Shown piece by piece: positions 288 to 18,442 of a DNA stretch of 26,009 nt. Location of the stretch: assembly GCA_038214755.1 (NCBI GenBank), contig JBBQRQ010000074.1:1-26009 (forward strand), read 5' to 3'. Made by a program: the position numbers and the translations under genes. Below the pieces are notes generated by a model, which was not told the origin of the DNA, did not search any database, and worked only from the letters and a program-made list of their open reading frames with translations. Source of the stretch: Verrucomicrobiota bacterium (lineage in GTDB: Bacteria; Verrucomicrobiota; Verrucomicrobiia; Limisphaerales; CANJXF01). How positions within the stretch are numbered: position 1 is the first letter of the stretch; each line of letters starts with the position of its first letter.

Positions 288-3200
288 ATGCAGACTCTGA
301 AGCGGGCACGGCACAACTGGAGGGAGAAGCACCCGGACTTAGCGGAGGCGAGCGAACCGCTTCTCCGAGCGGAGTTGTTCAGCATCGAACAACTGGAGCG
401 CCACGCCCGGACTCTTGCTGCCAGTCATCAGGTCATCACCCGACGAGGTTCCAATCGCCTCCTCGCCCGCCTCGACCAAAACGAGGCGATACTACGCTCC
501 TTCAACCGCGCGACTTTGGCAGTGGATCAAACCAGGCGCGTTACTCCCGCCGCCGAGTGGCTGCTGGATAATTTTTATTTGATCGACGAGCAGGTGCAAA
601 TGGCACGGACGCATTTGCCCCGGCAATACAGCCGCGAGTTGCCGCGTCTGGCCAACGGCCCTTTGACAGGTCTGCCGCGTGTTTACGAAATCGTGGTCGA
701 ATTAATCTCGCATGTGGATGCGCAAATTGATTCCGCGGCGCTCACCGCATTCGTCCGAGCTTATGAAGAAGTCTCTCCTTTAAAGCTGGGTGAGTTATGG
801 GCCATTCCGATTATGTTGCGACTAGGGTTGATTGAAAACCTACAGCGCGTGACAAGCTGGTTGACCCTCGCTCGCCGTGAACGCGACCTCGCTGACTTAT
901 GGGCGGAACGTTTGCAAGACATGGCAGAGAAAGACCCTTCTCACCTCGTCGTGGTCGTAGCAGATATGGCCAAAGCCCGCCTTTCCATGTCCTCTTCGTT
1001 TGTCGCGGAATTTTGTTTGCGCCTCGCCGGAAAAGCTTCCGTCCTCCCTTTCGCGCGAGGCTGGGTCGAACAACGGCTCTCCCAACAGGGCCTCTCCATC
1101 GAACAACTGGTCCAACGCGAAAGTCAGAGCCAGGCGGCCGACCAGGTATCGGTCAGTCATAGCATTGCCAGCCTTCGCTTCTTAAGCAGCATGGATTGGA
1201 AGGAATTCGTCGAGACGACAAGTCTGGTCGATCAAATACTGCGGACCGATCCAGCGGATGTTTATAGTGACATGGATTTTTCCACCAGAGACAGCTATCG
1301 CCATTCCGTGGAAGCTCTGGCCCGGTATAGCAAGCAGACCGAATTAGATGTCGCCAAACACGTCATACAACTCGCCGCGGACAGCGCAAGAGAGAAAGGA
1401 CGGGAAGATCGCAGCGCCCACGTCGGTTATTACCTGATCGACAAGGGCCATCCTCTCCTGGAGCGCGCCACCGGAGTAAAGTGGCCGCGAGCGACAGCGA
1501 TTGAACGAGCCATTCCTCGTCATCCACTGACCTTCTATGTCGGCGGAATTTTTTCAGTGACCCTTCTCGCTACGTTCCTGTTCGCGCGACAAGCGGTGTC
1601 GCTCAACGTCCAGGGTTGGAAACTTATTTTCTTCACCTGCATCCTGCTGCTCTGCTCCAGTCAATTGGCGGTCGCGCTGATGAATTGGCTCTCCATCCTG
1701 TTGATCAAACCTCGCTTGCTCCCGCGCCTGGATTTTTCGTCAGGCATACCGCCGGACCGACACACGATGGTGGTAGTCCCTACCATGCTCACAAGTGTGG
1801 AAGAGGTGGAGCATCTCATAGAAACACTCGAGATTCATTACCTCTCGAACCGGGACGAACAACTTCACTTCGCTTTGCTGACCGATTTTCGCGACGCTGT
1901 GGCGGAGGTCATGCCCAATGACGAGTCACTGCTGCAATGTGCGCGCAAGGGAGTAAGGATGCTGAACCAAAAATATTCAACGGGGGACAAAGACATCTTC
2001 TTCCTATTCCATCGCCCGCGCCGTTGGAACCCGGAAGAAGGATTATGGATGGGTTATGAACGAAAACGCGGCAAGCTCGCCGAGTTCAATGCGCTCCTTC
2101 GCGGCGGCAATGACAAATGTTTTTCCGAGATCATCGGAGATATCTCCATCCTGCCTTCGATCAAATATGTCATCACTCTGGATACGGATACTCAACTGCC
2201 GCGCGATGCGGCGCGTCAACTGGTCGGAACGATGTCTCACCCATTGAACCAGCCGCGTTTCGATGCGGAGCGCGGCATCGTCACTGAAGGTTATAGCATC
2301 CTACAACCGCGCGTGGGTGTCAGCTTGCCCAGCGCGGGACGATCGTGGTTCGTTCGACTTTTTGCCGGCGATGCTGGAATCGATCCCTATACCCGCGCCG
2401 TGTCCGATGTGTATCAGGATCTCTTTCATGAAGGCTCTTTTATCGGAAAAGGAATTTACGACGTCGATGCCTTTGAACGGTCGGTGGCTGGACGCTTCCC
2501 AGAGAACAGGGTGTTGAGCCATGACTTGTTGGAATCCTGCTATGCCCGATCCGCTCTGGTCAGTGACGTGGAATTCTACGAAGCGCATCCTTCCCGCTAC
2601 AATGCGGATATAGGCCGGCGTCATCGTTGGATACGAGGCGACTGGCAAATAACCCAATGGCTCTTGCCTCGAACTCCTGGAGCAGATGCCCGCAGCATTG
2701 CAAACCCTATCTCCGGTTTGTCACGTTGGAAGATTTTCGATAATCTCCGTCGTAGTCTGATTCCTCCCGCTCTGCTGCTCTTTCTGGTTTGTAGCTGGCT
2801 CCTTCTCCCGCAACTGGGTGGGTTAGGATCATTGTTTGTTCTCTCTATCATCCTATTGCCTGGTTTGTTGTCCGTCCTCAATGAGTTATTTAACAAGTCC
2901 GAGGCTTTACCTTGGCCCATGCATCTCCGCGCGGTCGCCAGGTCCTGCGGACGCGACCTGGCCCAGGTATTTCTTACCCTGGCCTTCCTCCCCTACGATG
3001 CTTTCATCAGCGTGGATGCAATTGCGCGCACACTCGTTCGTTTGCTCGTGACTGGGAAACGGCTCTTGGAATGGCAAACGTCAAGTGAATCCGAGCGCAC
3101 TGCCCGGTCGGACCTTCCTGGCTTTATCGCTAGCATGTGGGTCACACCGGTTATTGCTGTGGCGAGTGGAATTATCCTCGCTTTACAACACCCACACCAA

Positions 3201-6200
3201 TTGCCCGTCGCTCTGCCCTTCCTGTCCGCCTGGCTCGTTGCTCCGTGCATCGCCTGGTTGATCAGCCGACCTATCGCAGCCCCATCGCCAGATTTAAGTG
3301 AGGAGCAACTGGCCTTCCTCCGACGTGTAGCCCGTAAGACATGGCATTTTTTTGAAACCTTCGTTACCTCGCGGGATAACTGGCTGCCTCCCGATAATTT
3401 CCAGGAGATTCCCGCGCCAGCCATCGCCTCGCGCACCTCCCCCACGAACATAGGTCTGGCGCTGCTGGCCAACCTCTCCGCGCATGACTTCGGCTACCTG
3501 TCCACCGGCCGCTTGCTGCAACGCACCAAAGATACGTTTGCTACCATGCAACGGATGGAGCGACATCGTGGACATTTCTTTAATTGGTACGAGACCGGAA
3601 CGCTTCAACCTCTTCAACCTCTCTACGTCTCCTGCGTGGACAGCGGAAATCTCGCGGGACATCTGCTCACGCTTGGCTCGGGTTTAAAAGAGTTGCCTGA
3701 TGAAAAAATTTTCACCCCGCAAATTTTTCAGGGCTTGCGGGATACGATGAATATTTTGGAAGAGTTGAGAGTTGAAAAGAATACGCTGACCCAGTTGGAG
3801 GCCGAGTTAAAAAAAACGCCTGCCACTCTGCGCGCGAGCTTTGACCTACTGGAGAGGAGTAGAAACTTGGCAACCCAAATCGCTGACTCAATCCCGCCGC
3901 AGGAAGAAGAGTCCAGACGTTGGGCGAATATATTGAAGCAAAGTTGCGCGGAACATTTGCAGGAATTACTCCTGCTCGCTCCGTGGCTTGGTGCAACCTC
4001 TGACTTTCCTGACAATCGAACTAACCAAGAGGATACTTCTTCATTTACGGTACCCGCCGACGTGAGGAAGCGGATGTCAACTGATGAACCACCCATCCGC
4101 CTCCTCACGTCGGCGGCTCCAACCGAGGAAACTACTTTCCGTTCTCTCAACGCCAATGAAGGTCTGCCTACTTCCACTTCGACACGATGGAAGGAGAAGC
4201 TGGCGCAACTCGACCAGATACCTACCTTGCGCGAAGTGGCAGAACTGGAACAGACACTCATTCCATTGATTGAAGAAAAGTTAAAAAGTTTCGCGGCGGA
4301 GCCTGCTTCATCTGCCGAGAGAAGAACCTGGCTCCGTGAATTGTCAGACCACTTGCGCGAGGCCGGGGAGCGTGCCCGGCAGCGTACACTCGAGATAGAG
4401 ACGTTGGCTCAACAAAGCGCCGAGTTGGCCGAGATGGACTTCACCTTTCTGTTCGATCATGCGCGAAATTTATTTTCGATTGGTTTCAATGTTACCACTT
4501 ACCGGCGCGATACCAGTTTCTACGACCTCCTCGCCTCGGAGGCGCGCCTTTGCAGCTACGTTGCCATTGCTCAAGGACAAGTGTCGCAGAAGCACTGGTT
4601 TTCTCTCGGCCGTCTGCTCGTGGCTAAGCGAGGAGAACCGCTCCTGGTTTCATGGAGCGGGTCGATGTTCGAGTATCTGATGCCGCTGCTCATCATGCCC
4701 ACCTATGAAAATACTTTGCTCGATCACACTTGTCGCGCGGCGGTTCGGCAACAAATAGAGTATGGCAAATTGCGCGGCGTGCCCTGGGGTATTTCTGAAT
4801 CAGGTTACAATCGAACGGATGCCCATCTCATCTACCAATACCGCGCCTTCGGTGTGCCGGGCCTTGGATTGAAGCGAGGTTTAGCGGAGGACATGGTTAT
4901 CGCTCCCTACGCCGCAGCCCTGGCTTTGGTCATTGCGCCACGAGAAGCTTGTCAGAACCTGCAACGAATGGCGGTCGATGGCCGTGAAGGAGCCTACGGA
5001 TTCTACGAAGCAATCGACTACACGCCATCGCGCCTGCCGCCGGACGAGTCTAGTGTTACTATCCAATCCTACATGGCGCATCATCAGGGGATGACCTTGC
5101 TGGCATTGGCGTCTCTATTGTGTGACCGCTCCATGCAACGACGCTTCATGGGTTGCCCTTTGTTGAAAGCCGCCGACTTGCTTTTGCAGGAACGTTTGCC
5201 CAGGGCCGCCGCCAACGTCCTATCCGAAGACTTAACCATGGAAGAGCGGAGAGTCTCCGGCGATGGCGAAGGTATCATGCGGGTCTTTACTCAACCTTCC
5301 TCCCGCGCGCCTGAGGTCCATCTATTGTCCAATGGACGTTACCATGTGGTTATCAGCAGCGCGGGGGGCGGTTATAGTCGGTGGGGTGATCTGGCCGTGA
5401 CCCGCTGGCGTGAAGATCCCACGCGCGACTGTTGGGGAACATTCATTTATGTGCGCGACGTTGACACTGGAGAATTTTGGTCAACCGCTTATCAACCTAC
5501 TCTGCGCGAAGCGAAATTTTACGAAGCAATCTTCACTCAAGGACGCGCCGAGTTTCGTTTGCATCAATCGAACCTCGAAATTCATACCGAGATCAGTGTC
5601 TCGCCGGAGGACGACGTGGAGTTGCGTCGTGTCACCATCACCAACCTATTACATGTTGCACGCACCTTGGACCTGACCAGTTATGCTGAAGTAGTTCTGG
5701 CCGCGCCCGCCGCAGACGCAACCCATCCGGCCTTCAGCAACCTGTTCGTTCAAACAGAATTTATCCCATCCTCTTCGTCGATTCTTTGCACTCGCCGCGC
5801 CAGGTCACAAGAAGAAAAACCGCCCTGGCTTCTCCATCTCATGGTCGTTCAAGGGCAGGAACGAAGTAACCTTTCCTGCGAAACGGATCGTTTCAAATTC
5901 ATCGGACGAGGCGGGTCTCTGTCCCACCCGGTGGCGATGCAAAGTGTTTCACCCTTGAGCAACACCGCTGGCTCCGTCCTTGATCCGATTATCTCATTAC
6001 GACGCGCCATTAGCTTGAAGCCAAATGAAACCATCGTCATTGACCTGGTTATAGGTGCGGCGGAAAGCCGGGAGAACGCATTGATGCTGATCGAAAAATA
6101 TCAAAGCTCTCGCATGGCCGACCGCGCGTTGGAACTCGCCTGGACTCATAGTCAGGTAACCTTGCGCCATCTCAATGCTACCGAAGCCGAAGCGAAACTC

Positions 6201-9140
6201 TACGGCGGGTTAGCCAGCGCCTTGATTTATGTTGACCCTTTCCGACGCGCGCCCACCAGCATTTTGCGCGCGAACCGTCGCGGCCAAAGCGGTCTTTGGA
6301 GCTATGGCATCTCAGGCGACTGGCCGATTGTGCTGCTACGGGTAAGCGATACTGAAAAAGTTGATCTCGTTCGCCAGTTGATCACCGCCCACTCCTACTG
6401 GCGGATGAAAGGGTTGACGGTGGAACTAGTTATCTTGAACGAAGACCTTTCCGTTTATCGCCAATCCTTGCACGAGCAGATAACAAGCATGATTTCCTCT
6501 GGCCTTGCCGCGCGAATGTTGGACAAGCCCGGCGGCATCTTCGTCCGGCGGCTGGAACAAATCCCGGAAAACGACCGCGTGTTACTTCAGTCGGTGGCTC
6601 GCATTGTCCTCGATGACCAACATGGAACTCTGACTGAGCAACTGGAACAACGCAGTCTCATGGAACCGGTAGTTCCTCCACTCACACCGACGCGTTCTCC
6701 CTACCTTGACGCGCCAAAGTCTCTTCCACCGCGCGAGCTAATTTTCCACAATGGCTTCGGCGGCTTTACCCCGGATGGACATGAGTATGTTATAACCCTT
6801 CAACCTGGACAAATGACTCCAGCCCCATGGGTCAATGTGCTGGCCAATCCCTACTTCGGCACAGTCATATCCGAAAGCGGCGGTAGCTATACCTGGGTGG
6901 AAAACGCCCACGAGTTTCGTCTCACACCCTGGAACAATGATCCCGTCCAGGATACGACAGGAGAAGCCTTCTACATTCGCGACGAACTCACTGGACAATA
7001 CTGGTCCCCCACCCCTTTGCCGGCGCGCGGCCTGACGCCGTATGTCATCCGCCACGGCTTCGGTTATACTGTATTCGAACATATTGAAAATGGCATCGCC
7101 TCCGAGTTATGGGTCTATGTCGCGATGGATGCGCCGGTTAAGCTGGCCGTCTTGAAGTTACGCAATGAATCAGGACGTCCAAGACGTTTGTCTCTGACCG
7201 GCTACTGGGAATGGGTGCTGGGTGAGTTGCGGCATAAAAGCCTGTTGCATGTGCAAACGGAAGTTGATCTTAAGACCGGAACGTTGCTCGCCCGCAATTT
7301 TTATAATACCGAATTTCCCGAACGCATCGCCTTCCTGGATGTCAACGACACCGCGCGCACTTTGACCGGCGATAGAAAGGAATTCATAGGTCGCAATGGA
7401 AATCTTTCACATCCCGCCGCGCTGAAGCGCATGCGCTTGTCGGGTAAGGTAGGCGCTGGACTCGATCCTTGCGGCGCGTTGCAAGTAACCCTCGACCTCG
7501 CTATTGGACAGGAACGCGAAACAACCTTTCGCCTGGGAGTGGGTCGTAACATGGCGGAGGTTCACAATCTTATCCAACGCTTCCGCCGCGCGGATTCCAG
7601 TCGGGGCGCCCTCGAAGGTGTCTGGGCCTATTGGAACAAAACTCTCGGCGCGGTAAATGTCGATACTCCTGACCCCGCCGTGAATGTAATGGCCAATGGC
7701 TGGCTCTTGTATCAAACCCTCAGTTGCCGCGTTTGGGGCAGGACTGGCTTCTACCAATCCGGTGGGGCTTATGGGTTCCGCGATCAGTTACAGGACGTGA
7801 TGGCATTAGTCCATGCTGAGCCAGGTTTGACACGTGAGCACCTCCTCCGCGCCGCTGCTCACCAGTTCCGAGAGGGCGATGTCCAGCATTGGTGGCATCC
7901 ACCCGGCGGGCGAGGTGTGCGAACTCATTTCTCTGATGACTATCTGTGGTTGCCTTACGTTACCTGTCGTTACGTCTCCTCTGTGGCCGACACTGGCGTG
8001 CTGGACGAAAAAATTCCCTACCTCGAAGGCCGGGCTGTGCGACCCGACGAAGAAGCCTACTACGACTTACCCAATCGCTCGGAGGAGTGGGGCACACTCT
8101 ATGAACATTGCGTGCGAGCTATTGAATACGGATTGAAGTTCGGCCAACACGGTCTCCCCTTGATCGGTTGCGGCGATTGGAACGATGGCATGAACCTCGT
8201 TGGAAAAGAAGGACGGGGCGAAAGTGTCTGGCTGGCCTTCTTTCTTTACGAAGTGCTGAAGCAATTTGCCGAACTGGCTCGCGCGCGAAAGGACAACACC
8301 TTCGCCGAACGATGCCTTACTCAGGCCCGGCAGCTCCAACAGAACATCGAGCTACACGCATGGGACGGCCAATGGTATCGCCGCGCCTACTTCGATAATG
8401 GCGAACCTCTCGGTTCCCAGTCCAACCAGGAATGCCAGATCGATTCACTCCCGCAAAGCTGGTCCGTCATCAGTCGCGCCGGCGATCCGGAACGTTCTAC
8501 TCAGGCCATGAATGCTGTTGATCAACATCTCGTCCGGCGCAACGCGAAATTGATCCAGCTATTTGAACCACCTTTCGATAAGTCATCGCTTAACCCCGGC
8601 TACATCAAAGGTTACATCCCCGGCATCCGCGAGAACGGCGGCCAATACACTCACGGCGCAATTTGGACCGTGATGGCCTTCGCCTTTATGGGAAACAATG
8701 AACGAGCCTGGGAACTCTTCCGTCTGCTTAACCCCGTTCTACACGGGAACACCGCGAAACGGATTGCCGCTTACAAAGTGGAGCCTTATGTCGTCGCGGC
8801 GGATGTCTATGCCGTGGCGCCACACACAGGTCGAGGTGGGTGGACATGGTACACCGGCTCGGCCGGCTGGATGTATCGACTGCTGATTGAGACGCTGCTG
8901 GGTGTGAACCTCGAAGGAGATCGACTAAGGATTACACCTCGTTTGCCGAAACAATGGAACACTTACAAGATTCACTATCGCTACCGACAGACCCTTTACC
9001 ATATTACCATCACTCGACAGGCCGCTGATGCGGTTGCCTCAGACCATCTTCTTTTCCTCGATGGACAACAACTGTCGCAGACTTCGATCCCATTGGTGGA
9101 CGATCACCGAGAGCATATGGTCGAATTGAAAGTGCGTTGA
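288..9140 (+). CDS. ndvB: Cyclic beta-1,2-glucan synthase (NdvB/ChvB/Cgs): GT84 synthase region, TM helices, GH144-like/glucoamylase-like domain, C-terminal GH94 phosphorylase
   Basis: 2950-aa ORF with typical Cgs motifs: AAEWLLDNFYL, GELWAIPIMLR, WMGYERKRGKL, YVITLDTDT, GKGIYDVDAF, LSHDLLE, RRHRWIRGDWQ, LPPDNFQE, RTSPTNIG, SWSGSMFEYLMP, PWGISES, YQSGGAYGFRDQLQD, GDWNDGMN, RENGGQYTH, GGWTWYTGSAGW. Confidence 0.95.
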   Translation: MQTLKRARHNWREKHPDLAEASEPLLRAELFSIEQLERHARTLAASHQVITRRGSNRLLARLDQNEAILRSFNRATLAVDQTRRVTPAAEWLLDNFYLIDEQVQMARTHLPRQYSRELPRLANGPLTGLPRVYEIVVELISHVDAQIDSAALTAFVRAYEEVSPLKLGELWAIPIMLRLGLIENLQRVTSWLTLARRERDLADLWAERLQDMAEKDPSHLVVVVADMAKARLSMSSSFVAEFCLRLAGKASVLPFARGWVEQRLSQQGLSIEQLVQRESQSQAADQVSVSHSIASLRFLSSMDWKEFVETTSLVDQILRTDPADVYSDMDFSTRDSYRHSVEALARYSKQTELDVAKHVIQLAADSAREKGREDRSAHVGYYLIDKGHPLLERATGVKWPRATAIERAIPRHPLTFYVGGIFSVTLLATFLFARQAVSLNVQGWKLIFFTCILLLCSSQLAVALMNWLSILLIKPRLLPRLDFSSGIPPDRHTMVVVPTMLTSVEEVEHLIETLEIHYLSNRDEQLHFALLTDFRDAVAEVMPNDESLLQCARKGVRMLNQKYSTGDKDIFFLFHRPRRWNPEEGLWMGYERKRGKLAEFNALLRGGNDKCFSEIIGDISILPSIKYVITLDTDTQLPRDAARQLVGTMSHPLNQPRFDAERGIVTEGYSILQPRVGVSLPSAGRSWFVRLFAGDAGIDPYTRAVSDVYQDLFHEGSFIGKGIYDVDAFERSVAGRFPENRVLSHDLLESCYARSALVSDVEFYEAHPSRYNADIGRRHRWIRGDWQITQWLLPRTPGADARSIANPISGLSRWKIFDNLRRSLIPPALLLFLVCSWLLLPQLGGLGSLFVLSIILLPGLLSVLNELFNKSEALPWPMHLRAVARSCGRDLAQVFLTLAFLPYDAFISVDAIARTLVRLLVTGKRLLEWQTSSESERTARSDLPGFIASMWVTPVIAVASGIILALQHPHQLPVALPFLSAWLVAPCIAWLISRPIAAPSPDLSEEQLAFLRRVARKTWHFFETFVTSRDNWLPPDNFQEIPAPAIASRTSPTNIGLALLANLSAHDFGYLSTGRLLQRTKDTFATMQRMERHRGHFFNWYETGTLQPLQPLYVSCVDSGNLAGHLLTLGSGLKELPDEKIFTPQIFQGLRDTMNILEELRVEKNTLTQLEAELKKTPATLRASFDLLERSRNLATQIADSIPPQEEESRRWANILKQSCAEHLQELLLLAPWLGATSDFPDNRTNQEDTSSFTVPADVRKRMSTDEPPIRLLTSAAPTEETTFRSLNANEGLPTSTSTRWKEKLAQLDQIPTLREVAELEQTLIPLIEEKLKSFAAEPASSAERRTWLRELSDHLREAGERARQRTLEIETLAQQSAELAEMDFTFLFDHARNLFSIGFNVTTYRRDTSFYDLLASEARLCSYVAIAQGQVSQKHWFSLGRLLVAKRGEPLLVSWSGSMFEYLMPLLIMPTYENTLLDHTCRAAVRQQIEYGKLRGVPWGISESGYNRTDAHLIYQYRAFGVPGLGLKRGLAEDMVIAPYAAALALVIAPREACQNLQRMAVDGREGAYGFYEAIDYTPSRLPPDESSVTIQSYMAHHQGMTLLALASLLCDRSMQRRFMGCPLLKAADLLLQERLPRAAANVLSEDLTMEERRVSGDGEGIMRVFTQPSSRAPEVHLLSNGRYHVVISSAGGGYSRWGDLAVTRWREDPTRDCWGTFIYVRDVDTGEFWSTAYQPTLREAKFYEAIFTQGRAEFRLHQSNLEIHTEISVSPEDDVELRRVTITNLLHVARTLDLTSYAEVVLAAPAADATHPAFSNLFVQTEFIPSSSSILCTRRARSQEEKPPWLLHLMVVQGQERSNLSCETDRFKFIGRGGSLSHPVAMQSVSPLSNTAGSVLDPIISLRRAISLKPNETIVIDLVIGAAESRENALMLIEKYQSSRMADRALELAWTHSQVTLRHLNATEAEAKLYGGLASALIYVDPFRRAPTSILRANRRGQSGLWSYGISGDWPIVLLRVSDTEKVDLVRQLITAHSYWRMKGLTVELVILNEDLSVYRQSLHEQITSMISSGLAARMLDKPGGIFVRRLEQIPENDRVLLQSVARIVLDDQHGTLTEQLEQRSLMEPVVPPLTPTRSPYLDAPKSLPPRELIFHNGFGGFTPDGHEYVITLQPGQMTPAPWVNVLANPYFGTVISESGGSYTWVENAHEFRLTPWNNDPVQDTTGEAFYIRDELTGQYWSPTPLPARGLTPYVIRHGFGYTVFEHIENGIASELWVYVAMDAPVKLAVLKLRNESGRPRRLSLTGYWEWVLGELRHKSLLHVQTEVDLKTGTLLARNFYNTEFPERIAFLDVNDTARTLTGDRKEFIGRNGNLSHPAALKRMRLSGKVGAGLDPCGALQVTLDLAIGQERETTFRLGVGRNMAEVHNLIQRFRRADSSRGALEGVWAYWNKTLGAVNVDTPDPAVNVMANGWLLYQTLSCRVWGRTGFYQSGGAYGFRDQLQDVMALVHAEPGLTREHLLRAAAHQFREGDVQHWWHPPGGRGVRTHFSDDYLWLPYVTCRYVSSVADTGVLDEKIPYLEGRAVRPDEEAYYDLPNRSEEWGTLYEHCVRAIEYGLKFGQHGLPLIGCGDWNDGMNLVGKEGRGESVWLAFFLYEVLKQFAELARARKDNTFAERCLTQARQLQQNIELHAWDGQWYRRAYFDNGEPLGSQSNQECQIDSLPQSWSVISRAGDPERSTQAMNAVDQHLVRRNAKLIQLFEPPFDKSSLNPGYIKGYIPGIRENGGQYTHGAIWTVMAFAFMGNNERAWELFRLLNPVLHGNTAKRIAAYKVEPYVVAADVYAVAPHTGRGGWTWYTGSAGWMYRLLIETLLGVNLEGDRLRITPRLPKQWNTYKIHYRYRQTLYHITITRQAADAVASDHLLFLDGQQLSQTSIPLVDDHREHMVELKVR
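4050..4120. repeat. REP/REPIN-like inverted doublet inside the ndvB reading frame (GTAGCCGCCGACGTGAGGAGGCGGAT family)
   Basis: gtacccgccgacgtgaggaagcggat (4050-4075) ... atccgcctcctcacgtcggcggctcc (4095-4120). The right arm matches the intergenic copy at 25828-25853 in 25/26 nt. Translated as VPADVRKRM...IRLLTSAAP. Confidence 0.85.
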
Positions 9141-9284: not shown

Positions 9285-9540
9285 TCATTTTGGACTCTGA
9301 AGCGCTTTCTCAAACTCCTCTATGCCGAGCTTACATTTTCCCTGTGTGCCGACATCTAGGTCGTCTTCTTGCTACTTCTTTGGTCTCAAAATCGAGACTG
9401 ATATTAAAGCGATCAAAAGTGTATTCCTTAACAGTAGGAACGCCTAACACCCTTTGTTCACGAATTGCATCCAATAGTTTACGACGAACATAGGGATCGG
9501 CTTCTTCAGAAAGAAATTCGCTTAGTAGTTTTTCGTTCAT
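9285..9540 (-). pseudogene. Putative immunity protein of the orphan toxin module, frameshifted near 9372
   Basis: ATGA overlap with the upstream toxin ORF (9537-9540). The called ORF ends in ARRRPRCRHTGKM, while the shifted frame reads QEDDLDVGTQGKCKLGIEEFEKALQSPK* (stop 9285-9287), a plausible acidic C-terminus. Confidence 0.65.
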
Positions 9541-10097
9541 GGGATTCTGACAGGAAATGCCGTTTGTATCTGTCCATTTTTAATAAACACCCGAATATTC
9601 GAGGTGGCTCCGCCTGCCCGATCTGTTCCAATTGTTTGACCTAGATTATACTCGATCTTAATGCCGTTAGCACCCTGTGGGGTTATATTACCGTATCGCG
9701 ATGCCTGATCTACAAAGGACTTAATGTCACGGGCGGATGTGCCTTCGGCAAAACGACTCACATCAGAAAATCCAGAATCAAAGGCGCGTCGGTAATTAAT
9801 GTGCTCAATCGCGGTCATTAAGCCGCCCTCCCTGTAGGTGTTCAATGCACCCCATGACCCTCTTGCGGCAACGCTCTCGACCCGTGTTGCCGCACGAGCG
9901 CCTGTCAATCCCACCCGTTCCAATGGAATCAGTGATAAGCCAACACTGGCAGTCGCCAGAATTTTCTCCTGTGAAGTGACTCAGTTATCATACAGATCAT
10001 AGCCTGTGGTAGCCGACGTGACATCGCCAGCGAAGCCTAATGTCACTATGTTGAGAGCACCCGCAACAATGAGACAGATGACACAAATCACTTTCAT
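9537..10097 (-). pseudogene. Orphan RHS C-terminal toxin module (pre-toxin TG-like linker + putative RNase-type toxin) with in-frame TGA at 9981-9983
   Basis: ATG at 10097. The ORFs 9981-10202 and 9537-9923 are in the same frame. The N-terminal ~65 aa repeat the linker of the main RHS C-terminus, where the codon corresponding to TGA is CGA (Arg). The distinct tip EHINYR...SRF...GQTIGTD...IRVFIKNGQIQTAFP resembles small RNase toxin domains. Confidence 0.75.
9865..10064. repeat. Diverged direct repeat of the RHS pre-toxin linker (copy 2)
   Basis: Aligns with about 10801-11000 and includes a 36-bp exact match (9990-10025 = 10926-10961, atacagatcatagcctgtggtagccgacgtgacatc). Confidence 0.9.
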
Positions 10098-10098
10098 G

Positions 10099-10473
10099 CT
10101 AGGTACTAGGAGGCGGCAAAAGAAGACCACTGGGTGCAAAAAACTCACCATCGTCTTCCCTGAACGAAACAATCCCTCCAACAATAAAACCCAACCACTC
10201 ATGGCCTTTAATGGAGTAGACCTTATTCCCGGACTCGATCATTTGAGCCGGATTGCTGTGGAAGTCTTCCAAAAATGCTGCATCAATCTCTTCAATCGTT
10301 ACACCTTCAAACCAAGACCTCAACTCCATGGCCCTGACATCTTGGAACAATATGTCAATTCTCGTCGGAGCTTGCTTCGTCTTTCTGCTTCGCAATAATA
10401 ATAGACCATGGCTTGCAGCATAGCTGAAGATCACAAAGCTCCGCTTGGATTCAAATATAGGAGTATTACTCAT
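10099..10473 (-). CDS. Putative cognate immunity protein of the RHS toxin
   Basis: 124-aa ORF with an ATGA overlap with the RHS stop (10470-10473). No signal peptide, and it sits in the canonical toxin-immunity position. Confidence 0.8.
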   Translation of the reverse strand: MSNTPIFESKRSFVIFSYAASHGLLLLRSRKTKQAPTRIDILFQDVRAMELRSWFEGVTIEEIDAAFLEDFHSNPAQMIESGNKVYSIKGHEWLGFIVGGIVSFREDDGEFFAPSGLLLPPPST

Positions 10474-13400
10474 TTTATGAATGGATTAGGCATTGGGGTC
10501 AATTGTCCGGGCTGATAAAAATTCGCTTGAGGGAGGCGTCCAGCCTGTTGCAGTCGTTGTAATTCCCAACCCGTGTGAGAGCCACTTTGCATCTCGTTCA
10601 TAATCATTTCCGCTGGTGTATCCCCGAAGAACCCACCCATGTTAATATGAAAAGTTGTCGTAGGGTTCTCCACATGGGAAAGGAAAACGTTCTTCCATTG
10701 ATTATTCGGCAGGTCCAAGAGATGGTTGGCTCCTATGTCTGAGGCGAATGTTCGTAACCCGCTAAACCTGGATCCTAATGCTATATTCGCGCCCCCTCCT
10801 GCGGCAACGCGCTCCACTCTTGTTGCGATACGCGCGCCGGTAAGTCCGACACGTTCCAACGGAATTAGCGATAAACCAACACTGGCAGCGGCCAGGATTC
10901 TCTCCTGACTGGTGACTCGGTTATTATACAGATCATAGCCTGTGGTAGCCGACGTGACATCCCCGGCCAAGCCCAATGTCACTACATTCAGGAAGCCCGC
11001 CGCCAGGTTCCGTCCTGCATTGGGATCGCCATAGTGCCGCGCATCGGCTTGCAGATTTTGGGTTTGCTGATACCAGGATTGCGATTGGAGCCAGGACGCG
11101 GAACTCGCTGCTGCAATTGCACCCAACCCGAATGGATCACTCATACTGATAGGATTGCCATCGGCATAAGCGTAGTGGTTCAAGCCACCGGAGAAGCCGC
11201 TAGGGTCGGCGTTGATGAAGCGACATAGGAACGGATTGTAATATCTGGCCCGCATGTAGAGCAGGCCGTTGCTGTCGGTCTGGACTCCATAACGTCCGTT
11301 ATAGAGGAATGGCGTGTCCGTTGTGCCAGTGCGGTACGTGGTAGTTCCATAAGCAGAGTATTCAACGCGGTCAGTGACGATGCCGCTGCCATCAGTCAAC
11401 GCTACGGTGCTGCCACGACAATCGTAATGATAGGTCTTGGTATTTCCCGCATCATCCGCCTCATAAAGCAAGCCGAGGCCATAGACGTAGTAGTTAGTCA
11501 CTCCATTCTTCCCACGGATGAGCACTTGTGAGAGAGCGGCGTTCGGATTGATGATGAAGCGCGTTACGTTTGTCCCGTTGGTTATAGATGTCCTGCTCCC
11601 CGTTGGATCGTAACCATAAGTCAGGGACGCCGTCGAAGTCGTCCCTACCAGCCGATTGCGCGCGTCATACGTGTAAGTGGCAAACGTGCCATTGGTGAGC
11701 GGCGCACCTGTTATGTTGCCATCCGAATCATTCGTCACTGCCGTGCTGTTGAACGTTGCCAGACGGTTGTCATCATCATAGGTCATCACTCGTGTGGGCG
11801 GCGTGTAGGCATGAGGTAGTGGCGCGGCAAATTCCCATTCCATTCTTGCGGCGCTGTTCCAATTGAATTTGAAGAAGGCAATCGGGACTCCTATTCCCAT
11901 CCGCTCGATGATGTTCGTTGTCTGTCCCGCGGCATCGTAGAAGAGTTCACGCACGGTGTTGTTCGGACGCGTGATCTTCTTTAACCGATTGGCGAGATCG
12001 TATTCCATGCTCGTCTTGCGGTTTGCCCAGTCGGTCACGTTCGTCAGCCGGTTCAAGCTATCGTATGCATAATAGACATTCTTGCTGTCAGGATAAACGA
12101 GGTTCGTCAGATTGCCGTTCGGGTCGTAGCGATATTGAAGAAGGTTGTTATCCGCATCGCGGTAAGTAACAGCACGGTCATAAGCGTCATACGTCCAGAC
12201 ATTCGACTTTCCTAATTCAATGACGTTCGTCGCATTGTCATTGAAGTCATAGCGATAGAGAGTCGTCGCGACTCCATCGACGCGATTGGTCAAGCGGCCT
12301 TTCGCATCGTAATTATTCGTCGCTGATTGGGTAGATGGTTCCTTTACCGATGAAACCAATCCGCGATTATCATAAGTCAACTTAGTTTCGCGTCCTAGCG
12401 GTGTAACCGTGTTCGTCAAACGATTGGCGGCATCAAATTGAAACTGCCACTTCTTTCCGTTCCTATTCGTCAGCGTAACTTGGTTGCCCCCTTCGTCATA
12501 GACACTCGAGGCGGTATGACCCGCTCCGTCTATTACCTTGACTGCTTCACCCCGCGCGTTCCATTCCTGTCGGGTTACTTCCAAAGCCGCATTGGTCGTT
12601 TGCGTTTGGCGTCCGACAGCGTCATAGACAGCTCGGCTCGTTCGCAGGAGAGGATCGGTTACGCTCGTGACTCGGCCCGCTATATCGTTAGTGTAGAGCG
12701 TGGGTTGTTGAAGTGGGTTCAGGGTGCGTAGCACCCAATCGCGATTGTCATAGATATTGGTTACTATCGGCGTGCCTTGGGCAGTTACCGGGTAAATAGT
12801 CGCCAGTTGTTTCTGCGTGGCGCTCCAAAGATTGCTCACGACAAAACTCCGTGCATCTGTCGCACTCACTGCATTGCCCACGGCATCAAAGGCTATCTTG
12901 GTAATAATGTTAGTCGGCGCTATTGTGTTAGTTACTTGTCGGCGCGCGTTGTATTCAAAGCTGGTCACGAAGTTACGCGCATTCGTATAACTCAGGACAT
13001 CTCCATTGGCGCTGTTCAGAAAACTATTTGTGCCAAGACTGCCCGAAGAGATGACAGTCTTCAATTGTCCCCAAGTATCGTAGGTAAAGCTGCTTGTTCC
13101 TCCCGGATCGCTTTGACTGGTTAGAGTCCCGTCCGTCGTACTGTAAACAAAAGTCTTCCAATCACCCGCTCCATTGGTCATTCCGGTCAATTGATGTTTG
13201 GTATTGTAACCGAATGAATTGATTTTACCTCGCGCATCGACGCTCTGACTTAACCGATTGGAGGAATCATAACTGAACTGATTGGTGAAATTCAGCGCGT
13301 CAATCGAACGGACCAAGTTGTTTCGTCCGTCATATATCATTCGGTTTGTCTCGTTCAACGCAGAGATGGAGATCACGGCGTGGTCATGGCCGTCATAGAA

Positions 13401-16400
13401 GGTTTGGCTTAGATTTCCCAAGGCATCCTTTACTCCAATCGGGCGATGTTGTTCGTCGTAGTAAAAGAGCCGCTTGCTTCCCGCCGGGTCTTCCTCTGTA
13501 TTCATGTAACCGCTCCAATACAAGCGCCAGCGCCGGTTGGTGTCGCCAGCGGTGTATTGTTCTACCACACGCCCGAAACCATCGTAGATGTTGCTTGTGA
13601 TGGTTTGGTTTAACTCATCCTTAGTTGCAATGATTTGATGATTGGTATCATAAAGATAGGTGCCTGCCGCCTTTTCAACATTCGTGACCGCCACGAGATC
13701 AATACCGCTGGTATTGGCAACATAGCTAAAGCCAATCGAACGCCCGGTGCTATCCGTCACACTATCCAAATGCTTTGGCGTGCCGGAGTAGGCCAGGGTC
13801 AAGGTGCGGTTCTTCCAGTCGGTGATCAAAGTAGGAAGAGAACTGGTGCTGTTGAGATAGGTAAACGTGAGGTCTTGAAGATAGGGATCGACGATGCTGG
13901 TCAGCCGGCCTTTGGCGTCGAAGTTAAAGGTGTTCTTATTCCGTTCCTTTAGCGCATAGGTTGTCCCGGTCTTGGTCAAGGTCATGGTGCAGTTGGCTGG
14001 CGGAGTATAGGAACCGTCCGGTTGTTTCACAAACTCCAGAGTGTCATTGCCCATCGTAATTGAGATTCCGTTATCAATCAGTTGATCGATTCCCCACTTT
14101 GCAATGAGCGCGGTGACAGTCCATTTTTTGACATCCTCGGCAGTTGTATAAAGGTTCAATGCCGCGCAGGTTGCGACCAGCATGGAAGCCATTTGTGCCG
14201 GAGTGCTTCGACCCAGGCCTGCTTCGGGCGAACTGATTTGCGCGAGGTTGAAATAGTAGTTATGCAGCCAGCCATTCGCCATGCCCGCCAGATTATGTCG
14301 CCGTCGCGCCGGGTTGTAATACCGGGTAAAGGCCAGTCCTTTCGGTTCAGCTTCACCAATAGATAAATCAAGGGAGTTAATATAGAATGAACCATCCGCC
14401 ATGTTGACCGGGTCCGCGCCATGAAAACTCGGAATCGAAGGCGGTTGCGGCGCGAAATAGGTGGGTGCGGCATAACTGGATTGATAAACAAAGGGTGGAT
14501 TAACAAAAGCGGAAGGACTGGAAACAAAGCCTCCATTGTAACCGCCCTCGATTTTCAGACGGATACTGCTATTGCCGGTGGTTGCCTTAATGATCAAGCC
14601 GTAACCTGCCCAGCCCGCACCTGCGACCAACCGATGACCATCCTTCGGCAGAAGCAACGTATTGGTGGCATTGATATATCCCTGTAAAAGGTTGGTGTCG
14701 TAATTGACTAACTGACTCTTGAGTGTTGCCCAATTACCGCTGTTCAATAAATAAATAGGGACTGACGCAGCAGTGGCGGATTGAAGCATCTTGATGGTGG
14801 AAGCTCCAACCAGACCATCAGTTTGGAGTTGTTCAATTATGCCATGTTCAAGAGCACTTTCAAAGTAACCCGCAAGGTCAAGGAACTTCGATAATTGACC
14901 GATACCTTCCAGGGTCCGCCCTTTCTCTGGAAAATCCAACGCAAGCTGCGCATAGGCGTCAATATAGTAGCCGCGACCTTGCTCTTGCGCCATGCGTCCG
15001 AGGCGATGATGATACTGGGTGAGCACGTCGCTTTGCCGCGCCAGTATATGTTCGCTTAATGCCGTCTGAAACATCCAGTTCAATCCCATGACATTCAGTG
15101 TTTCGCTCGTTACTTCACGCGAGGTGTTGGTTAAACCCATTTGCACATAAGCATCTAATTTCTTTTGGCGCAGTCGTAACAGTTCACTGCCCGCTTCAAA
15201 GCTATAAAGCAATGCGTAGGTGGAGTTGGTTCGTTGGTAGGTTATGGTCACGGATTGATCGTTTGTGATTGAATTACGGAGAGTATTGGCGGTGGTCCAT
15301 TGTCCATGAGGATGATCGATGCTGAGTGTTAGATCAACCGTTCGGCCACCGGTGGTTGATTGTTGTAAAAGAAGGTTGTCTTCCTGCCACAGCTTACCCA
15401 ACCCGTTGGCGTCGAAAGTCAGTGATAAACGCTGCCCTTGCAGGGACGGAACAAACCATTGATAATTGGTTCCCCCAATGCTGATGGCCAGAGTCGTCAT
15501 CAAACTGGTCGGCAAATTGGTCCAACTTAACAACGGAAGAACCCCATTCAGATCGTCCCGCGGGAAAAGTGGGGTCTGACTTAACTCATTGGTCCAGGGA
15601 ACGATTCTGCGTCCACCCAGAATTTCTTCGACCGAAGCATTGGGACAATTTGATTGCAGATAGCCCAGTAAGTTCGTGGTGTAATCGCGTAGCTTGTTGC
15701 GCAAAGGAGTTTCTGTCAGATTATCCACGTAGCCCGTGCCGAGAACGCCCGCTGCATTGGTCATCAGCGCGTTGGTGCTTAGACCGGTGGCCGTAAGCAG
15801 ATTGGTTCCGATGATCGCTTCACTCACCTTGAAAGCAGGATCGAAGTAATAGTTGGTGGAGCCAATGGTCAGCGCCACCCAAACCCGATGGAATTCAATC
15901 GTTGAATTGCTACTGGGCCATACATACGGATAGCCTCGAGCCAGCAATAGAGCCGCAGATGAATTATACGACGTTGTCCAATCGGTATTGGGGAGGTTAA
16001 ATTCAAACCAATGCTGTAAATCATTATGATCCGAGCTTTCATACGGCATCCGCATCAGACTGAATTGGTAAGTGGTATTAGTATGTCCCGCCGCGCGCAG
16101 CAATGCCACCAACAACGCGCATTGATCAAAGTCATTGCCGGAACGTTCCAATAGTGTCAGCTGCGCTCCTTTCTTGGACCCAAAATACAGGACGTGTCGA
16201 ATATAATCATGGACGTATCGGAAGATGCGAAGCGGATCATTTTCCAAACCTCGCGCCAGTTCTTGAATTTCCGGCGTGACCGCTTCCGCGATAGCGTCAG
16301 GAGCATTAATGTATCCCTCAGACTTAGCCTCGTCCGGGGACACTAGTTCGCTGATAGGCCCCGAATCATCTATCGTCGCATTAAACCAACCCGGTTCCGT

Positions 16401-16475
16401 AAACTGTTGTGCGTGGCCAACCGCAGCGGTTGTTATCAGCAGGAGGAATAAACAAAAAATTCGGGTGTATTTCAT
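10470..16475 (-). CDS. RHS/YD-repeat polymorphic toxin with Sec signal peptide, transglutaminase-like N-terminal domain, RHS core and C-terminal toxin
   Basis: Signal peptide MKYTRIFCLFLLLITTAAVGHA|Q. TGase-like segment (IFRYVHDYI...GNDFDQCALLVALLRAAG...VWVAL...YFDPAFK). DPVNMADG at about 14414, many YD repeats, core end RARYYNP...DPSG...GNPISMSDPFGL, then a 217-aa C-terminal extension. Confidence 0.93.
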   Translation of the reverse strand: MKYTRIFCLFLLLITTAAVGHAQQFTEPGWFNATIDDSGPISELVSPDEAKSEGYINAPDAIAEAVTPEIQELARGLENDPLRIFRYVHDYIRHVLYFGSKKGAQLTLLERSGNDFDQCALLVALLRAAGHTNTTYQFSLMRMPYESSDHNDLQHWFEFNLPNTDWTTSYNSSAALLLARGYPYVWPSSNSTIEFHRVWVALTIGSTNYYFDPAFKVSEAIIGTNLLTATGLSTNALMTNAAGVLGTGYVDNLTETPLRNKLRDYTTNLLGYLQSNCPNASVEEILGGRRIVPWTNELSQTPLFPRDDLNGVLPLLSWTNLPTSLMTTLAISIGGTNYQWFVPSLQGQRLSLTFDANGLGKLWQEDNLLLQQSTTGGRTVDLTLSIDHPHGQWTTANTLRNSITNDQSVTITYQRTNSTYALLYSFEAGSELLRLRQKKLDAYVQMGLTNTSREVTSETLNVMGLNWMFQTALSEHILARQSDVLTQYHHRLGRMAQEQGRGYYIDAYAQLALDFPEKGRTLEGIGQLSKFLDLAGYFESALEHGIIEQLQTDGLVGASTIKMLQSATAASVPIYLLNSGNWATLKSQLVNYDTNLLQGYINATNTLLLPKDGHRLVAGAGWAGYGLIIKATTGNSSIRLKIEGGYNGGFVSSPSAFVNPPFVYQSSYAAPTYFAPQPPSIPSFHGADPVNMADGSFYINSLDLSIGEAEPKGLAFTRYYNPARRRHNLAGMANGWLHNYYFNLAQISSPEAGLGRSTPAQMASMLVATCAALNLYTTAEDVKKWTVTALIAKWGIDQLIDNGISITMGNDTLEFVKQPDGSYTPPANCTMTLTKTGTTYALKERNKNTFNFDAKGRLTSIVDPYLQDLTFTYLNSTSSLPTLITDWKNRTLTLAYSGTPKHLDSVTDSTGRSIGFSYVANTSGIDLVAVTNVEKAAGTYLYDTNHQIIATKDELNQTITSNIYDGFGRVVEQYTAGDTNRRWRLYWSGYMNTEEDPAGSKRLFYYDEQHRPIGVKDALGNLSQTFYDGHDHAVISISALNETNRMIYDGRNNLVRSIDALNFTNQFSYDSSNRLSQSVDARGKINSFGYNTKHQLTGMTNGAGDWKTFVYSTTDGTLTSQSDPGGTSSFTYDTWGQLKTVISSGSLGTNSFLNSANGDVLSYTNARNFVTSFEYNARRQVTNTIAPTNIITKIAFDAVGNAVSATDARSFVVSNLWSATQKQLATIYPVTAQGTPIVTNIYDNRDWVLRTLNPLQQPTLYTNDIAGRVTSVTDPLLRTSRAVYDAVGRQTQTTNAALEVTRQEWNARGEAVKVIDGAGHTASSVYDEGGNQVTLTNRNGKKWQFQFDAANRLTNTVTPLGRETKLTYDNRGLVSSVKEPSTQSATNNYDAKGRLTNRVDGVATTLYRYDFNDNATNVIELGKSNVWTYDAYDRAVTYRDADNNLLQYRYDPNGNLTNLVYPDSKNVYYAYDSLNRLTNVTDWANRKTSMEYDLANRLKKITRPNNTVRELFYDAAGQTTNIIERMGIGVPIAFFKFNWNSAARMEWEFAAPLPHAYTPPTRVMTYDDDNRLATFNSTAVTNDSDGNITGAPLTNGTFATYTYDARNRLVGTTSTASLTYGYDPTGSRTSITNGTNVTRFIINPNAALSQVLIRGKNGVTNYYVYGLGLLYEADDAGNTKTYHYDCRGSTVALTDGSGIVTDRVEYSAYGTTTYRTGTTDTPFLYNGRYGVQTDSNGLLYMRARYYNPFLCRFINADPSGFSGGLNHYAYADGNPISMSDPFGLGAIAAASSASWLQSQSWYQQTQNLQADARHYGDPNAGRNLAAGFLNVVTLGLAGDVTSATTGYDLYNNRVTSQERILAAASVGLSLIPLERVGLTGARIATRVERVAAGGGANIALGSRFSGLRTFASDIGANHLLDLPNNQWKNVFLSHVENPTTTFHINMGGFFGDTPAEMIMNEMQSGSHTGWELQRLQQAGRLPQANFYQPGQLTPMPNPFIK
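10801..11000. repeat. RHS pre-toxin linker repeat (copy 1, PT-TG-like)
   Basis: Encodes AGFLNVVTLGLAGDVTSATTGYDLYNNRVTSQERILAAASVGLSLIPLERVGLTGARIATRVERVAA and is duplicated at 9865-10064. Confidence 0.85.
11623..11648 (-). repeat. Single GTAG-type REP-like hairpin within the RHS gene
   Basis: The minus strand reads GTAGGGACGACTTCGACGGCGTCCCT (GTAG + AGGGACG/CGTCCCT stem) and encodes VGTTSTASL. There is no second copy in the window. Confidence 0.45.
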
Positions 16476-16486
16476 AGACTTAGCTT

Positions 16487-18055
16487 TTATGGGGTCGCCT
16501 GCGAAACGTTTGCTTCGGAATCCAGACCGATGGTTTCAATGCGCTTGCCTGAAATAGTTCGCAGCCACGCATCCGTGCCATAGGTGTAGTTTAGCCTTCC
16601 GCTGCTTTGCGCCGATTCATCAACCCGCGGGTTCAGGCCCGACATGACTTCCCATCCATCAAGAATCCCGTCTCCATCCGTGTCTGGATTAAGTGGGTTG
16701 GTGTGGCTCATCAACCGTTCATAGGCGTCCGTTAATCCGTCGCTGTCACTATCCAGAGAAGTTCCTAAAATCAGGAAGGCGCGACTCGGCAAATTGGTAA
16801 TCGTATAAATATTGCAATGATACCCTTGCCCCATCCAAAGCCATTGACTGTTCGTGAGCGATGACCCGATAAAATCGCCCGTGGCAAAAACATCGTAAGG
16901 CAGATTGTTCGAACCGCCCGCAATTTCAAAGGTGAAGTTTACACTTTGATTTGTTGCATTCGTTCCTACTAACGTCGCGACCATGTTCGTGATCCAAACG
17001 TTGCTGCTGGTCACGCAACTCGTCGCATTCGACCCGACCCATTGCAGGTATCCCGCGCCGGTAATAGCGAGGAAAGTGGGATCATAAGAAGGAGAAGACT
17101 GCGCAGAAGATAAGTTGGCAAAGTTCAGCGGATTTAAATAGTAATAAAAAGATCCCATGCTGAACGTCCTGCTGATCCTGGCCGCGTCCAACTGGAAGTT
17201 ATAGGTCGATATATCGTCAAATATTCCGCGCGCTTGGCTCAGGCCGGCGTTGTCGCTGCCGACAAAGAAGCCTGCCGCGAGCACGTTAGTATCGGGCAAG
17301 TAAGTTACAGGCAATCCGTTGGTCGCAAGTTCTCCGTCCAGATAAAGTGCGGAGTTGGTAGGCGAGTAAGTTAGCACAATCAAATGCCAACGGTTGGTCG
17401 TCCAGGCAATCGGAGCAGAAAGATGTGTTTGGCCTGCGCCGTTGGTTTGCGAGGAGAAATAAATGTTTGCGCCGTCGGGATCGAGATAAATGCTCCACCA
17501 ACCGTAACTCGCATTGGTCGTATAAGAGCCAACTTCAATCAAGCGTCCCCATTGTCCGGGACCGTTGCCGCCTTGATTAGTTCCCGTCCAGTTTGGCGCG
17601 AACCAAAACATCAATGTTCCTTCGTTCACCGTCAGGTTGGTTACGCCGTTAGTTTCAAAGACGTTGTATTGCAGCCAAGCCCCATTGGTGTTGTCTAAAA
17701 AAAGGGCGGAACCGTTGCCGAGCGGCGAAACTTCGAGATTTGTAAATGAAACAGGCGCGTGGCCAATTTCACTTGTCCAGGTATTGGTGTTATTGAACGT
17801 CCAATTATCCAGCCAGTCGTAAGTAGGAGGATCGCCGGGGGAAGGAACGTCAGCGCGAACCAATCCGACCAGCGGAAAAAACAATAAAAGAAAAATCCCG
17901 CCGATATAACGAAAACGCCGTGCCGCCGGATTCAAAGAGAACCTTCGCTGGAAGTCGTTCTTTAAGGATGAAGGAGCGAGAGGACTTTCCTGCGACGCGG
18001 GGTCGATTGTTTTCATGGGTTGTTTTCTGGTTAATTCCAGACAGTAAATTTTCAA
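16487..18055 (-). CDS. Secreted LamG/concanavalin-A-like domain protein with thrombospondin-type-3-like Ca-binding repeats and a C-terminal YD-like hairpin (ATG at 18016 is an alternative start)
   Basis: Hydrophobic signal-like stretch ending LVRA|D. LamG3-like motifs GTLMFWF, TNRWHLIVLTY, ALYLDGEL, GIFDDISTYN. Repeats DSDSDGLTDAYE and DTDGDGILDGWE. Ends 11 nt upstream of the RHS start. Confidence 0.8.
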   Translation of the reverse strand: MKIYCLELTRKQPMKTIDPASQESPLAPSSLKNDFQRRFSLNPAARRFRYIGGIFLLLFFPLVGLVRADVPSPGDPPTYDWLDNWTFNNTNTWTSEIGHAPVSFTNLEVSPLGNGSALFLDNTNGAWLQYNVFETNGVTNLTVNEGTLMFWFAPNWTGTNQGGNGPGQWGRLIEVGSYTTNASYGWWSIYLDPDGANIYFSSQTNGAGQTHLSAPIAWTTNRWHLIVLTYSPTNSALYLDGELATNGLPVTYLPDTNVLAAGFFVGSDNAGLSQARGIFDDISTYNFQLDAARISRTFSMGSFYYYLNPLNFANLSSAQSSPSYDPTFLAITGAGYLQWVGSNATSCVTSSNVWITNMVATLVGTNATNQSVNFTFEIAGGSNNLPYDVFATGDFIGSSLTNSQWLWMGQGYHCNIYTITNLPSRAFLILGTSLDSDSDGLTDAYERLMSHTNPLNPDTDGDGILDGWEVMSGLNPRVDESAQSSGRLNYTYGTDAWLRTISGKRIETIGLDSEANVSQATP

Positions 18056-18160
18056 CTATTTCACAGAAGTGCCTCGCGCCTTCGGAGAACGTTCTTCTGA
18101 TAGGACGACACATGTTTGGGGCAACGACGGTTTAATAGCAAGGGAAATGTTCAAGCATAC

Positions 18161-18214
18161 CACGATATATGTATCGTTCACGATTCAGCACGGGCAGCGA
18201 TTTAATATATCGTG
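18161..18214. promoter_or_regulatory. Candidate operator for the XRE regulator
   Basis: Perfect 10-bp inverted repeat CACGATATAT (18161-18170) / ATATATCGTG (18205-18214), which overlaps the GTG start. It contains two CGAT-N6/7-ATCG palindromes. Confidence 0.4.
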
Positions 18215-18442
18215 CCTCTGAGGAAAAAAGAATGGAACAGACTGAAGGTGTATGGCGCGAATGTGCGGCGCGAACGGGTGAGGAAAGGCTGGACGCAAGA
18301 AAAGCTCGCGGAAGAATCTGAAATTGCCACAAGGAATTTACAAAAAATTGAAGGTGGAGAAATTAATGTCCTGCTTACCACCGCATTTAGAATTCAACTG
18401 GCTCTTCGTTGCTCTTGGAAGCGTCTCGGCCCACCCGAATGA
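18212..18442 (+). CDS. XRE-family helix-turn-helix transcriptional regulator
   Basis: 76 aa: GANVRRERVRKGWTQEKLAE...NLQKIEGGEINVLLTTAFRIQLAL, a typical HTH_3 pattern. Divergent from the RHS operon. Confidence 0.9.
   Translation: MPLRKKEWNRLKVYGANVRRERVRKGWTQEKLAEESEIATRNLQKIEGGEINVLLTTAFRIQLALRCSWKRLGPPE

Follow-up and report, generated by a model that had tools for sequence, protein, structure and literature searches.

The RHS locus and its genome context

The window analyzed here, a stretch of 26,009 nucleotides, is the entire contig C74 of a 5.1-Mb, 97%-complete Verrucomicrobiota genome, and it holds a gene for a predicted antibacterial RHS polymorphic toxin, a partner gene, a regulator and putative immunity genes (Table 1). 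The partner ORF stops 11 nt before the toxin ORF. The sequence-only reading had listed an XRE gene together with an operon of a LamG partner and an RHS toxin; the partner/toxin pair on one strand agrees with this description, and the XRE gene is divergent from the pair. Also, an XRE homolog in divergent orientation is observed in 35 of 108 evaluable related loci. By sequence criteria, the RHS array, a variable C-terminal domain and a downstream putative immunity gene are all present at the locus. A family search with the putative immunity protein gave no match, and a segment of the orphan module (9858-10048) is 83% identical over 191 nt to the pre-toxin region of the toxin (10794-10984). The window also contains an ORF of 2950 aa (288-9140, plus strand), presumably resembling a cyclic beta-1,2-glucan synthase. 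Promoter and terminator counts at the locus are near chance, and a phage comparison of the locus returned no match.

Table 1. Position and basis of the features of the RHS locus within the window
Feature	Position	Strand	Basis or remark
XRE/HTH_3 regulator	18212..18442	+	Divergent from the RHS/partner pair; HTH_3 match
Partner gene, 522 aa from TTG	16487..18055	-	ORF; leader, LamG, TSP3 x2, YD unit
Single LamG_3 domain, residues 135-295	17171..17653	-	E 5.9e-12; variable cargo
Two bacterial TSP3 repeats, residues 435-478	16622..16753	-	Domain match; putative Ca-binding spacer
Single YD/RHS repeat unit, residues 486-522	16490..16600	-	Profile match; would supply the toxin barrel with four strands
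RHS polymorphic toxin, 2001 aa	10470..16475	-	ORF and domain matches
Sec-type signal peptide, residues 1-22	16410..16475	-	Basic/hydrophobic leader, heuristic call
Transglutaminase-like domain, catalytic Cys lost (Asp115)	15831..16241	-	Pfam and structure match
Conserved, confidently modelled region, residues 216-687	14415..15830	-	Alignment and model
DUF6531 plug-type domain from DPVN (residue 688)	14241..14414	-	Pfam match
11-residue Pro-rich linker, residues 1550-1560	11796..11828	-	Stands where other RHS proteins carry one more YD unit
Rhs-associated core, PxxxxDPxGL autoprotease motif, residues 1706-1784	11124..11360	-	RHS repeats precede it
C-terminal region, 217 aa	10473..11123	-	PT-TG-like pre-toxin part (E 0.007, below cut-off) and 114-aa putative toxin
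Putative immunity protein, 124 aa	10099..10473	-	Overlaps toxin stop; GC 0.45
Orphan toxin module	9537..10076	-	In-frame stop interrupts; weak EndoU match, E 0.016
Putative orphan immunity gene, 69 aa	9331..9540	-	GC 0.40

The toxin

The Sec-type leader proposed earlier for the toxin agrees with the homologs, 70 of the 74 scored passing the same basic-plus-hydrophobic heuristic. The proposed N-terminal region of about 690 aa, composed of a transglutaminase-like domain and some 470 aa before DPVN, likewise corresponds to the domain order found here, with residues about 216-687 giving no match in Pfam and NCBIfam. For the transglutaminase-like domain, PF01841 matches residues 79-166 (E 0.0033, below the cut-off) and is found in 40 of 41 family rows at E<=0.05; in the model of residues 23-760 (pLDDT 84.5) this part resembles the transglutaminase-like protease 3isr (Z 11.2, 124 aligned, rmsd 2.4). 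At the nucleophile position, which we take to be marked by the GxCxD motif, Cys occurs in none of the 41 aligned rows and Asp in 35. A Foldseek search with residues 23-760 gave no match at E<=0.001, and the VIA structure matches of these residues cover mostly the transglutaminase part, which gives no basis for claiming a new fold. An atlas match for residues 215-690 scored 0.79, and a single-protein genome scan found nothing.

Within the region that lacks a family assignment, invariant S, E and H with Q and S nearby lie at window positions 14841-14858 (residues 540-545), a cluster that could be a binding or catalytic site. DPVN at the start of DUF6531 is a possible N-terminal autocleavage site, P689 being kept in 39 of 41 rows. 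Just past the DUF6531 match (window 14060-14200, residues ~760-805) there is a conserved, fairly hydrophobic, two-helix-like insertion with a near-invariant Trp.

The autoprotease motif of the Rhs core is the one given in the excerpted text of PMC8765631. Beyond it the ends are polymorphic, the 95 complete C-termini of the family falling into 62 clusters. The query's C-terminal toxin domain has no match in Pfam and PDB; an unconfirmed lead from the atlas is ADP-ribosyl-cyclase-like (0.84, with the family on 45% of members).

The partner protein and its single YD unit

The partner would start at the ATG at 18016 (509 aa) with higher probability than at the TTG, a paralog being conserved from that ATG. 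It consists of a long leader with a hydrophobic region, the LamG domain, a beta-rich middle, the TSP3 repeats and a terminal YD unit. The gene had been read as encoding a secreted LamG-repeat protein in an operon with the toxin; the two-gene pair holds, but in place of LamG repeats there is one LamG_3 domain, followed by two TSP3 repeats and one YD unit.

Two paralogs of the LamG partner are found on other contigs of the genome, C10 and C106, with no RHS gene adjacent. The one on C10 (117-1544, minus strand) is 80% identical and is cut off after the first TSP3 repeat, without the YD unit; the 116 nt to the contig end show no similarity to the toxin gene. The arrangement on C106 (1893-6782) consists of a divergent XRE gene and a LamG/TSP3 protein of 1530 aa.

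For a survey of related loci, 200 were fetched, and 199 of them carried the family N-terminus. Among these were 158 unique loci, 152 of them with 250 nt or more of upstream sequence; the loci are kin and not independent. A single YD unit of about 38 aa is found in the directly upstream gene of 138 of the 152 loci, being C-terminal in 136 and N-terminal in 2. Because the YD-unit profile was seeded on 28 of the surveyed loci, the count outside the seed set is also given, which is 111 of 124. On re-examination, 12 of the 14 profile misses proved to have the unit: it lies directly upstream in eight, past an inserted ORF in one, in small downstream genes in two and on the opposite strand in one. 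At L059 and L060 the upstream gene has no YD unit and a small downstream gene carries it. Altogether, a neighboring gene bears the unit in 150 of 152 loci. Of the others, L041 has an intact gap-type toxin and no YD gene within 20 kb, a second locus in that genome having one, and L092 has no YD gene and a broken toxin.

The unit shows 20-65% identity across loci, lies in frame behind a leader, ends at the stop codon and has near-invariant Y/L/D/E/G/N. It occurs in several phyla and its placement varies: it is found at the C-terminus or the N-terminus of the neighboring protein, in a small gene of its own, or as a fusion with the toxin. Seven proteins are natural single-ORF fusions with the unit at the N-terminus; in two of them, P0129 and P0229, a hydrophobic segment lies internally between unit and toxin part, and P0129 has a weak midcut-by-XrtH match.

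The remainder of the partner is far less constant, its length ranging from about 65 to over 2000 aa. A TSP3 motif accompanies the unit in 116 of 138 YD-bearing upstream genes, and a query-like LamG is present in 75 of 152 loci. In the five proteobacterial plasmid loci opened, all toxins lack the barrel unit and the upstream gene consists of a leader and one YD unit; four of these partners are cargo-free, and the fifth also carries TSP3 and, at the cut-off, an IPTL-CTERM signal, an exosortase gene being located in its vicinity. Thus, the neighborhood survey bears out the two-gene arrangement of the sequence-only reading, but not a constant LamG, and its lectin-defined partner is not supported by these counts. 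Judged from the sequences, the defining element of the partner is the single YD unit, which that reading had overlooked.

A repeat unit missing from the toxin barrel

The Pro-rich linker of the toxin is found at the position where a YD unit stands in cis before the last strands leading to the core in 9pt5 and 8h8a. The spacing between landmarks is 38 aa in the toxin and about 77 aa in PDB 9pt5, as counted manually after motif re-registering of a repetitive sequence, on which the barrel gap rests; a phmmer alignment to 9pt5 in its own register, which is one repeat off, shows no gap. In the family this spacing never exceeds 45 aa (0 of 292 rows, a redundant set, and 0 of 100 rows in a second set), and the linker measures 11-12 aa in 82 of 85 rows, with two or more Pro in 82 of 85. 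Moreover, the partner profile ranks the position of the missing unit best in 8h8a (897-933) and second-best in 9pt5/9ifo (1874-1916). One family relative, L271:14916-16520, is truncated and carries the unit in cis.

Covariation over 85 paired sequences places 4 of the top 10 pairs near the gap. For the tail against the gap flanks, 8 of the top 25 pairs were obtained against 1-8 in 12 neighbor swaps, which is not above the relatedness control. An extra unit of 41-45 aa near toxin residue 1277, present in 11 of 40 loci, was considered as a partner-linked feature and discarded, as it does not track the partner in these 40 loci.

RHS loci outside the family

Within the own genome, the RHS proteins on C57, C100, C18 and C3 have the barrel unit and no single-YD neighbor was detected beside them, whereas the RHS protein on C9 lacks the unit and its neighbor consists of TSP3 and one YD unit. 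The tail profile matched only 1 of 26,747 ORFs of this genome, the partner itself; the same profile detected 55 of 56 held-out family tails and missed the C9 partner.

A control set of 40 RHS loci with frames of at least 1300 aa was drawn among the 150 listed of 354 Rhs-core matches (61 genomes); loci of the own genome and known family members were excluded, as were three very long frames. Inspected by eye, 35 of them have the unit, 2 lack it (L256 and L259) and 3 are unclear. L256 and L259 are also the only control loci with a single-YD neighbor, both by the profile and by a separate pattern, in a set where 24 of the 40 had at least 1 kb upstream and at least 2 kb downstream. Moreover, these two, and no others of the 40, match the gap-type profile over its full length with no added residues. 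The gap-type barrels of the family, L256, L259 and C9 give high mutual scores, and a single split may be the origin of them all, in which case the correlation would not amount to many independent events.

Three neighboring observations are worth recording. The RHS protein of L259 (7587-12131) has a C-terminal region corresponding to a TonB-dependent receptor plug (PF07715, E 9.6e-19), with no usual toxin. On C3 (16452-17219, plus strand), upstream of another class of RHS protein, a gene product combines a leader and TSP3 repeats with a short C-terminal tail that is hydrophobic, and is possibly a second kind of plug-in partner. On C100 (11416-14067, minus strand), just downstream of a unit-complete RHS gene, the mature N-terminus of the encoded protein resembles half a YD unit.

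Export and secretion machinery

PAAR, VgrG-type GPD and TssC (PF05488, PF05954 and PF05943) have no matches in the own genome, 97% complete, where PorV and SpvB (PF03534) were not found either; in the toxin itself, a PAAR/VgrG-linked N-terminus was not found. The earlier remark that PAAR, VgrG and SpvB are not visible in the window agrees with this genome-wide result. As for the secretion systems that had been suggested for checking, a T2SS-like cluster with GspG and a secretin together is present on C20, whereas markers of T6SS and T9SS were not found. Two exosortases are also encoded. In a plasmid of Methylomonas sp. UP202 (L272:1323-7861), a T2SS-type gene cluster is divergent from a YD-unit/RHS pair.

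A proposed mechanism and its alternatives

The most plausible explanation, which we regard as probable on the sequence data, is that the YD unit of the partner completes the RHS barrel of the toxin in trans after export, the LamG domain or a membrane anchor being variable cargo. Sec would take both chains across the inner membrane, and they would come together in the periplasm. There, the Pro-rich linker would span a four-strand gap in the barrel wall and the partner YD unit, with four predicted strands, would fill this gap, closing the barrel and thereby clipping the variable modules of the partner (here the lectin-like LamG) onto the toxin. The Rhs core would cleave off the caged C-terminal toxin, the toxin/partner pair would exit by T2SS, and the cargo would provide surface attachment or target binding. 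Because many partners carry no cargo, the first role of the YD unit is likely structural, that is, closing and perhaps later opening the cage.

A different possibility is that the YD unit attaches the partner to the toxin outside the gap, for instance at the DUF6531 plug, the N-terminal region or an edge of the barrel, and that the partner assists folding or secretion as a chaperone; the shortness of the linker would then be ordinary variation in repeat number. Such variation does exist in the family, as seen in the extra unit near residue 1277, which has no link to the partner. Nonetheless, a chaperone would leave unexplained both the co-occurrence of unit loss with a single-YD neighbor outside the family and the preference of the partner profile for the gap position in solved RHS chains, and we consider it rather unlikely. 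The model of the sequence-only reading, in which the LamG partner is a dedicated target- or surface-binding subunit of a two-component toxin, finds some agreement in the loci with a query-like LamG and in PMC3482391, excerpts of which view laminin-G in T2SS-type toxins as likely anchors. As the main function this appears quite improbable, considering that about half of the loci lack such a LamG, that partner size spans the range given above with four plasmid partners reduced to leader and YD unit, and that no RHS gene adjoins the LamG paralogs on C10 and C106; surface or target binding may hold here as a secondary role. Finally, the unit could be a recombination relic of rhs DNA with no role as a protein, given that rhs loci shed fragments and orphan modules lie in the window. 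A relic, however, would hardly be kept in frame between leader and stop in nearly all loci at such divergence, with near-invariant residues and at several positions and in several phyla, and this explanation seems very improbable indeed.

Extending completion of the barrel in trans beyond this locus, we lean slightly towards a widespread class of Sec-exported RHS proteins with a split barrel in Verrucomicrobiota, Desulfobacterota, Nitrospirota and proteobacterial plasmids. In this class, the separately exported unit would act as a lock by which the cage is closed only once export has taken place, might offer a side door through which the toxin is released, and would serve as a standard clip for modules of the lectin, TSP3-spacer or exosortase-anchor kind, so that these systems would vary at both the killing and the attaching ends.

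Comparison with known systems

In donor-strand complementation of chaperone-usher pili, one strand from another chain finishes an Ig fold. There too an incomplete beta fold is finished by another chain, while a four-strand unit entering a barrel wall is predicted here. TcB and TcC are both large and are joined end to end. In contrast to Tc B/C, a 38-aa unit would fill an internal gap here, both chains have leaders and SpvB was not found in the genome. The Tc B/C cocoon, as far as the excerpts of PMC8765631 describe it, likewise has a C-terminal aspartyl autoprotease and a caged toxin, with an RHS barrel formed by two polypeptides, as is predicted here. The T6SS Rhs effectors RhsA, RhsP and Tse5 in the same excerpts share the DUF6531 plug, the DP motif, the barrel and the Rhs core. 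They differ from the present toxin in that this one has a Sec-type leader in a genome where PAAR, VgrG-type and TssC were not found, and 8h8a has the unit in cis.

The architecture of the toxin, which had been considered undescribed, is already known: polymorphic toxins combining a signal peptide with an inactive transglutaminase and RHS repeats are described as a Sec/T2SS class in the available portion of PMC3482391 (Zhang 2012), and the toxin is a member of this inactive-transglutaminase RHS architecture. Those toxins have the same leader, triad-lost transglutaminase domain, RHS repeats and variable C-terminal toxins, but that portion of PMC3482391 mentions no partner gene, missing repeat or 470-aa region between transglutaminase and RHS. 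Another RHS bacteriocin, Bcn-A from Xanthomonas perforans (1398 aa), loses activity in an xpsD (T2SS) mutant and requires accessory ORFs, which in the excerpts of PMC7259588 are not described as YD units; it is set apart by this description. The bacterial teneurin-like proteins (bioRxiv 10.1101/2025.11.11.687626) are, according to the excerpted preprint, YD-shell toxins of the Sec type that have adhesion domains and are accompanied by immunity genes. Their adhesion domains are in cis, along with an FN-plug/NHL superfold and, in 9pt5, the YD unit. FN-plug and NHL gave no Pfam match in the toxin at E<=0.1, DUF6531 being present instead. Literature searching by word matching, with most subscription papers outside its coverage, found no description of a single-YD partner or of a missing barrel unit.

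On the questions of how RHS toxins with signal peptides fold, find their targets and open, the solved examples come from T6SS, Tc and teneurin-like proteins. A repeat unit supplied in trans, if true, would give Sec-exported RHS toxins a concrete assembly and release step. Moreover, it would explain the small genes beside rhs genes annotated only as 'RHS repeat domain-containing protein'.

Distribution of the family

The nearest homologs carry labels of Verrucomicrobiota, Limisphaerales. In the phylum, 22 of 301 genomes have a match to the N-terminal region of the toxin, and in the order 20 of 251 do, counting the own genome; it is also matched in 16 proteobacterial plasmid records and in proteins labelled Geobacteraceae, Nitrospirota, Smithella and others. 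The family comprises 3,010 representatives (50% clustering, E<=1e-30), with members in the cultured non-pathogens Luteolibacter algae and Methylomonas. Also, in P0130, P0137, P0148, P0154, P0184, P0205 and their relatives, subtilisin, C1 peptidase, SBBP propeller or other domains are fused ahead of the transglutaminase domain.
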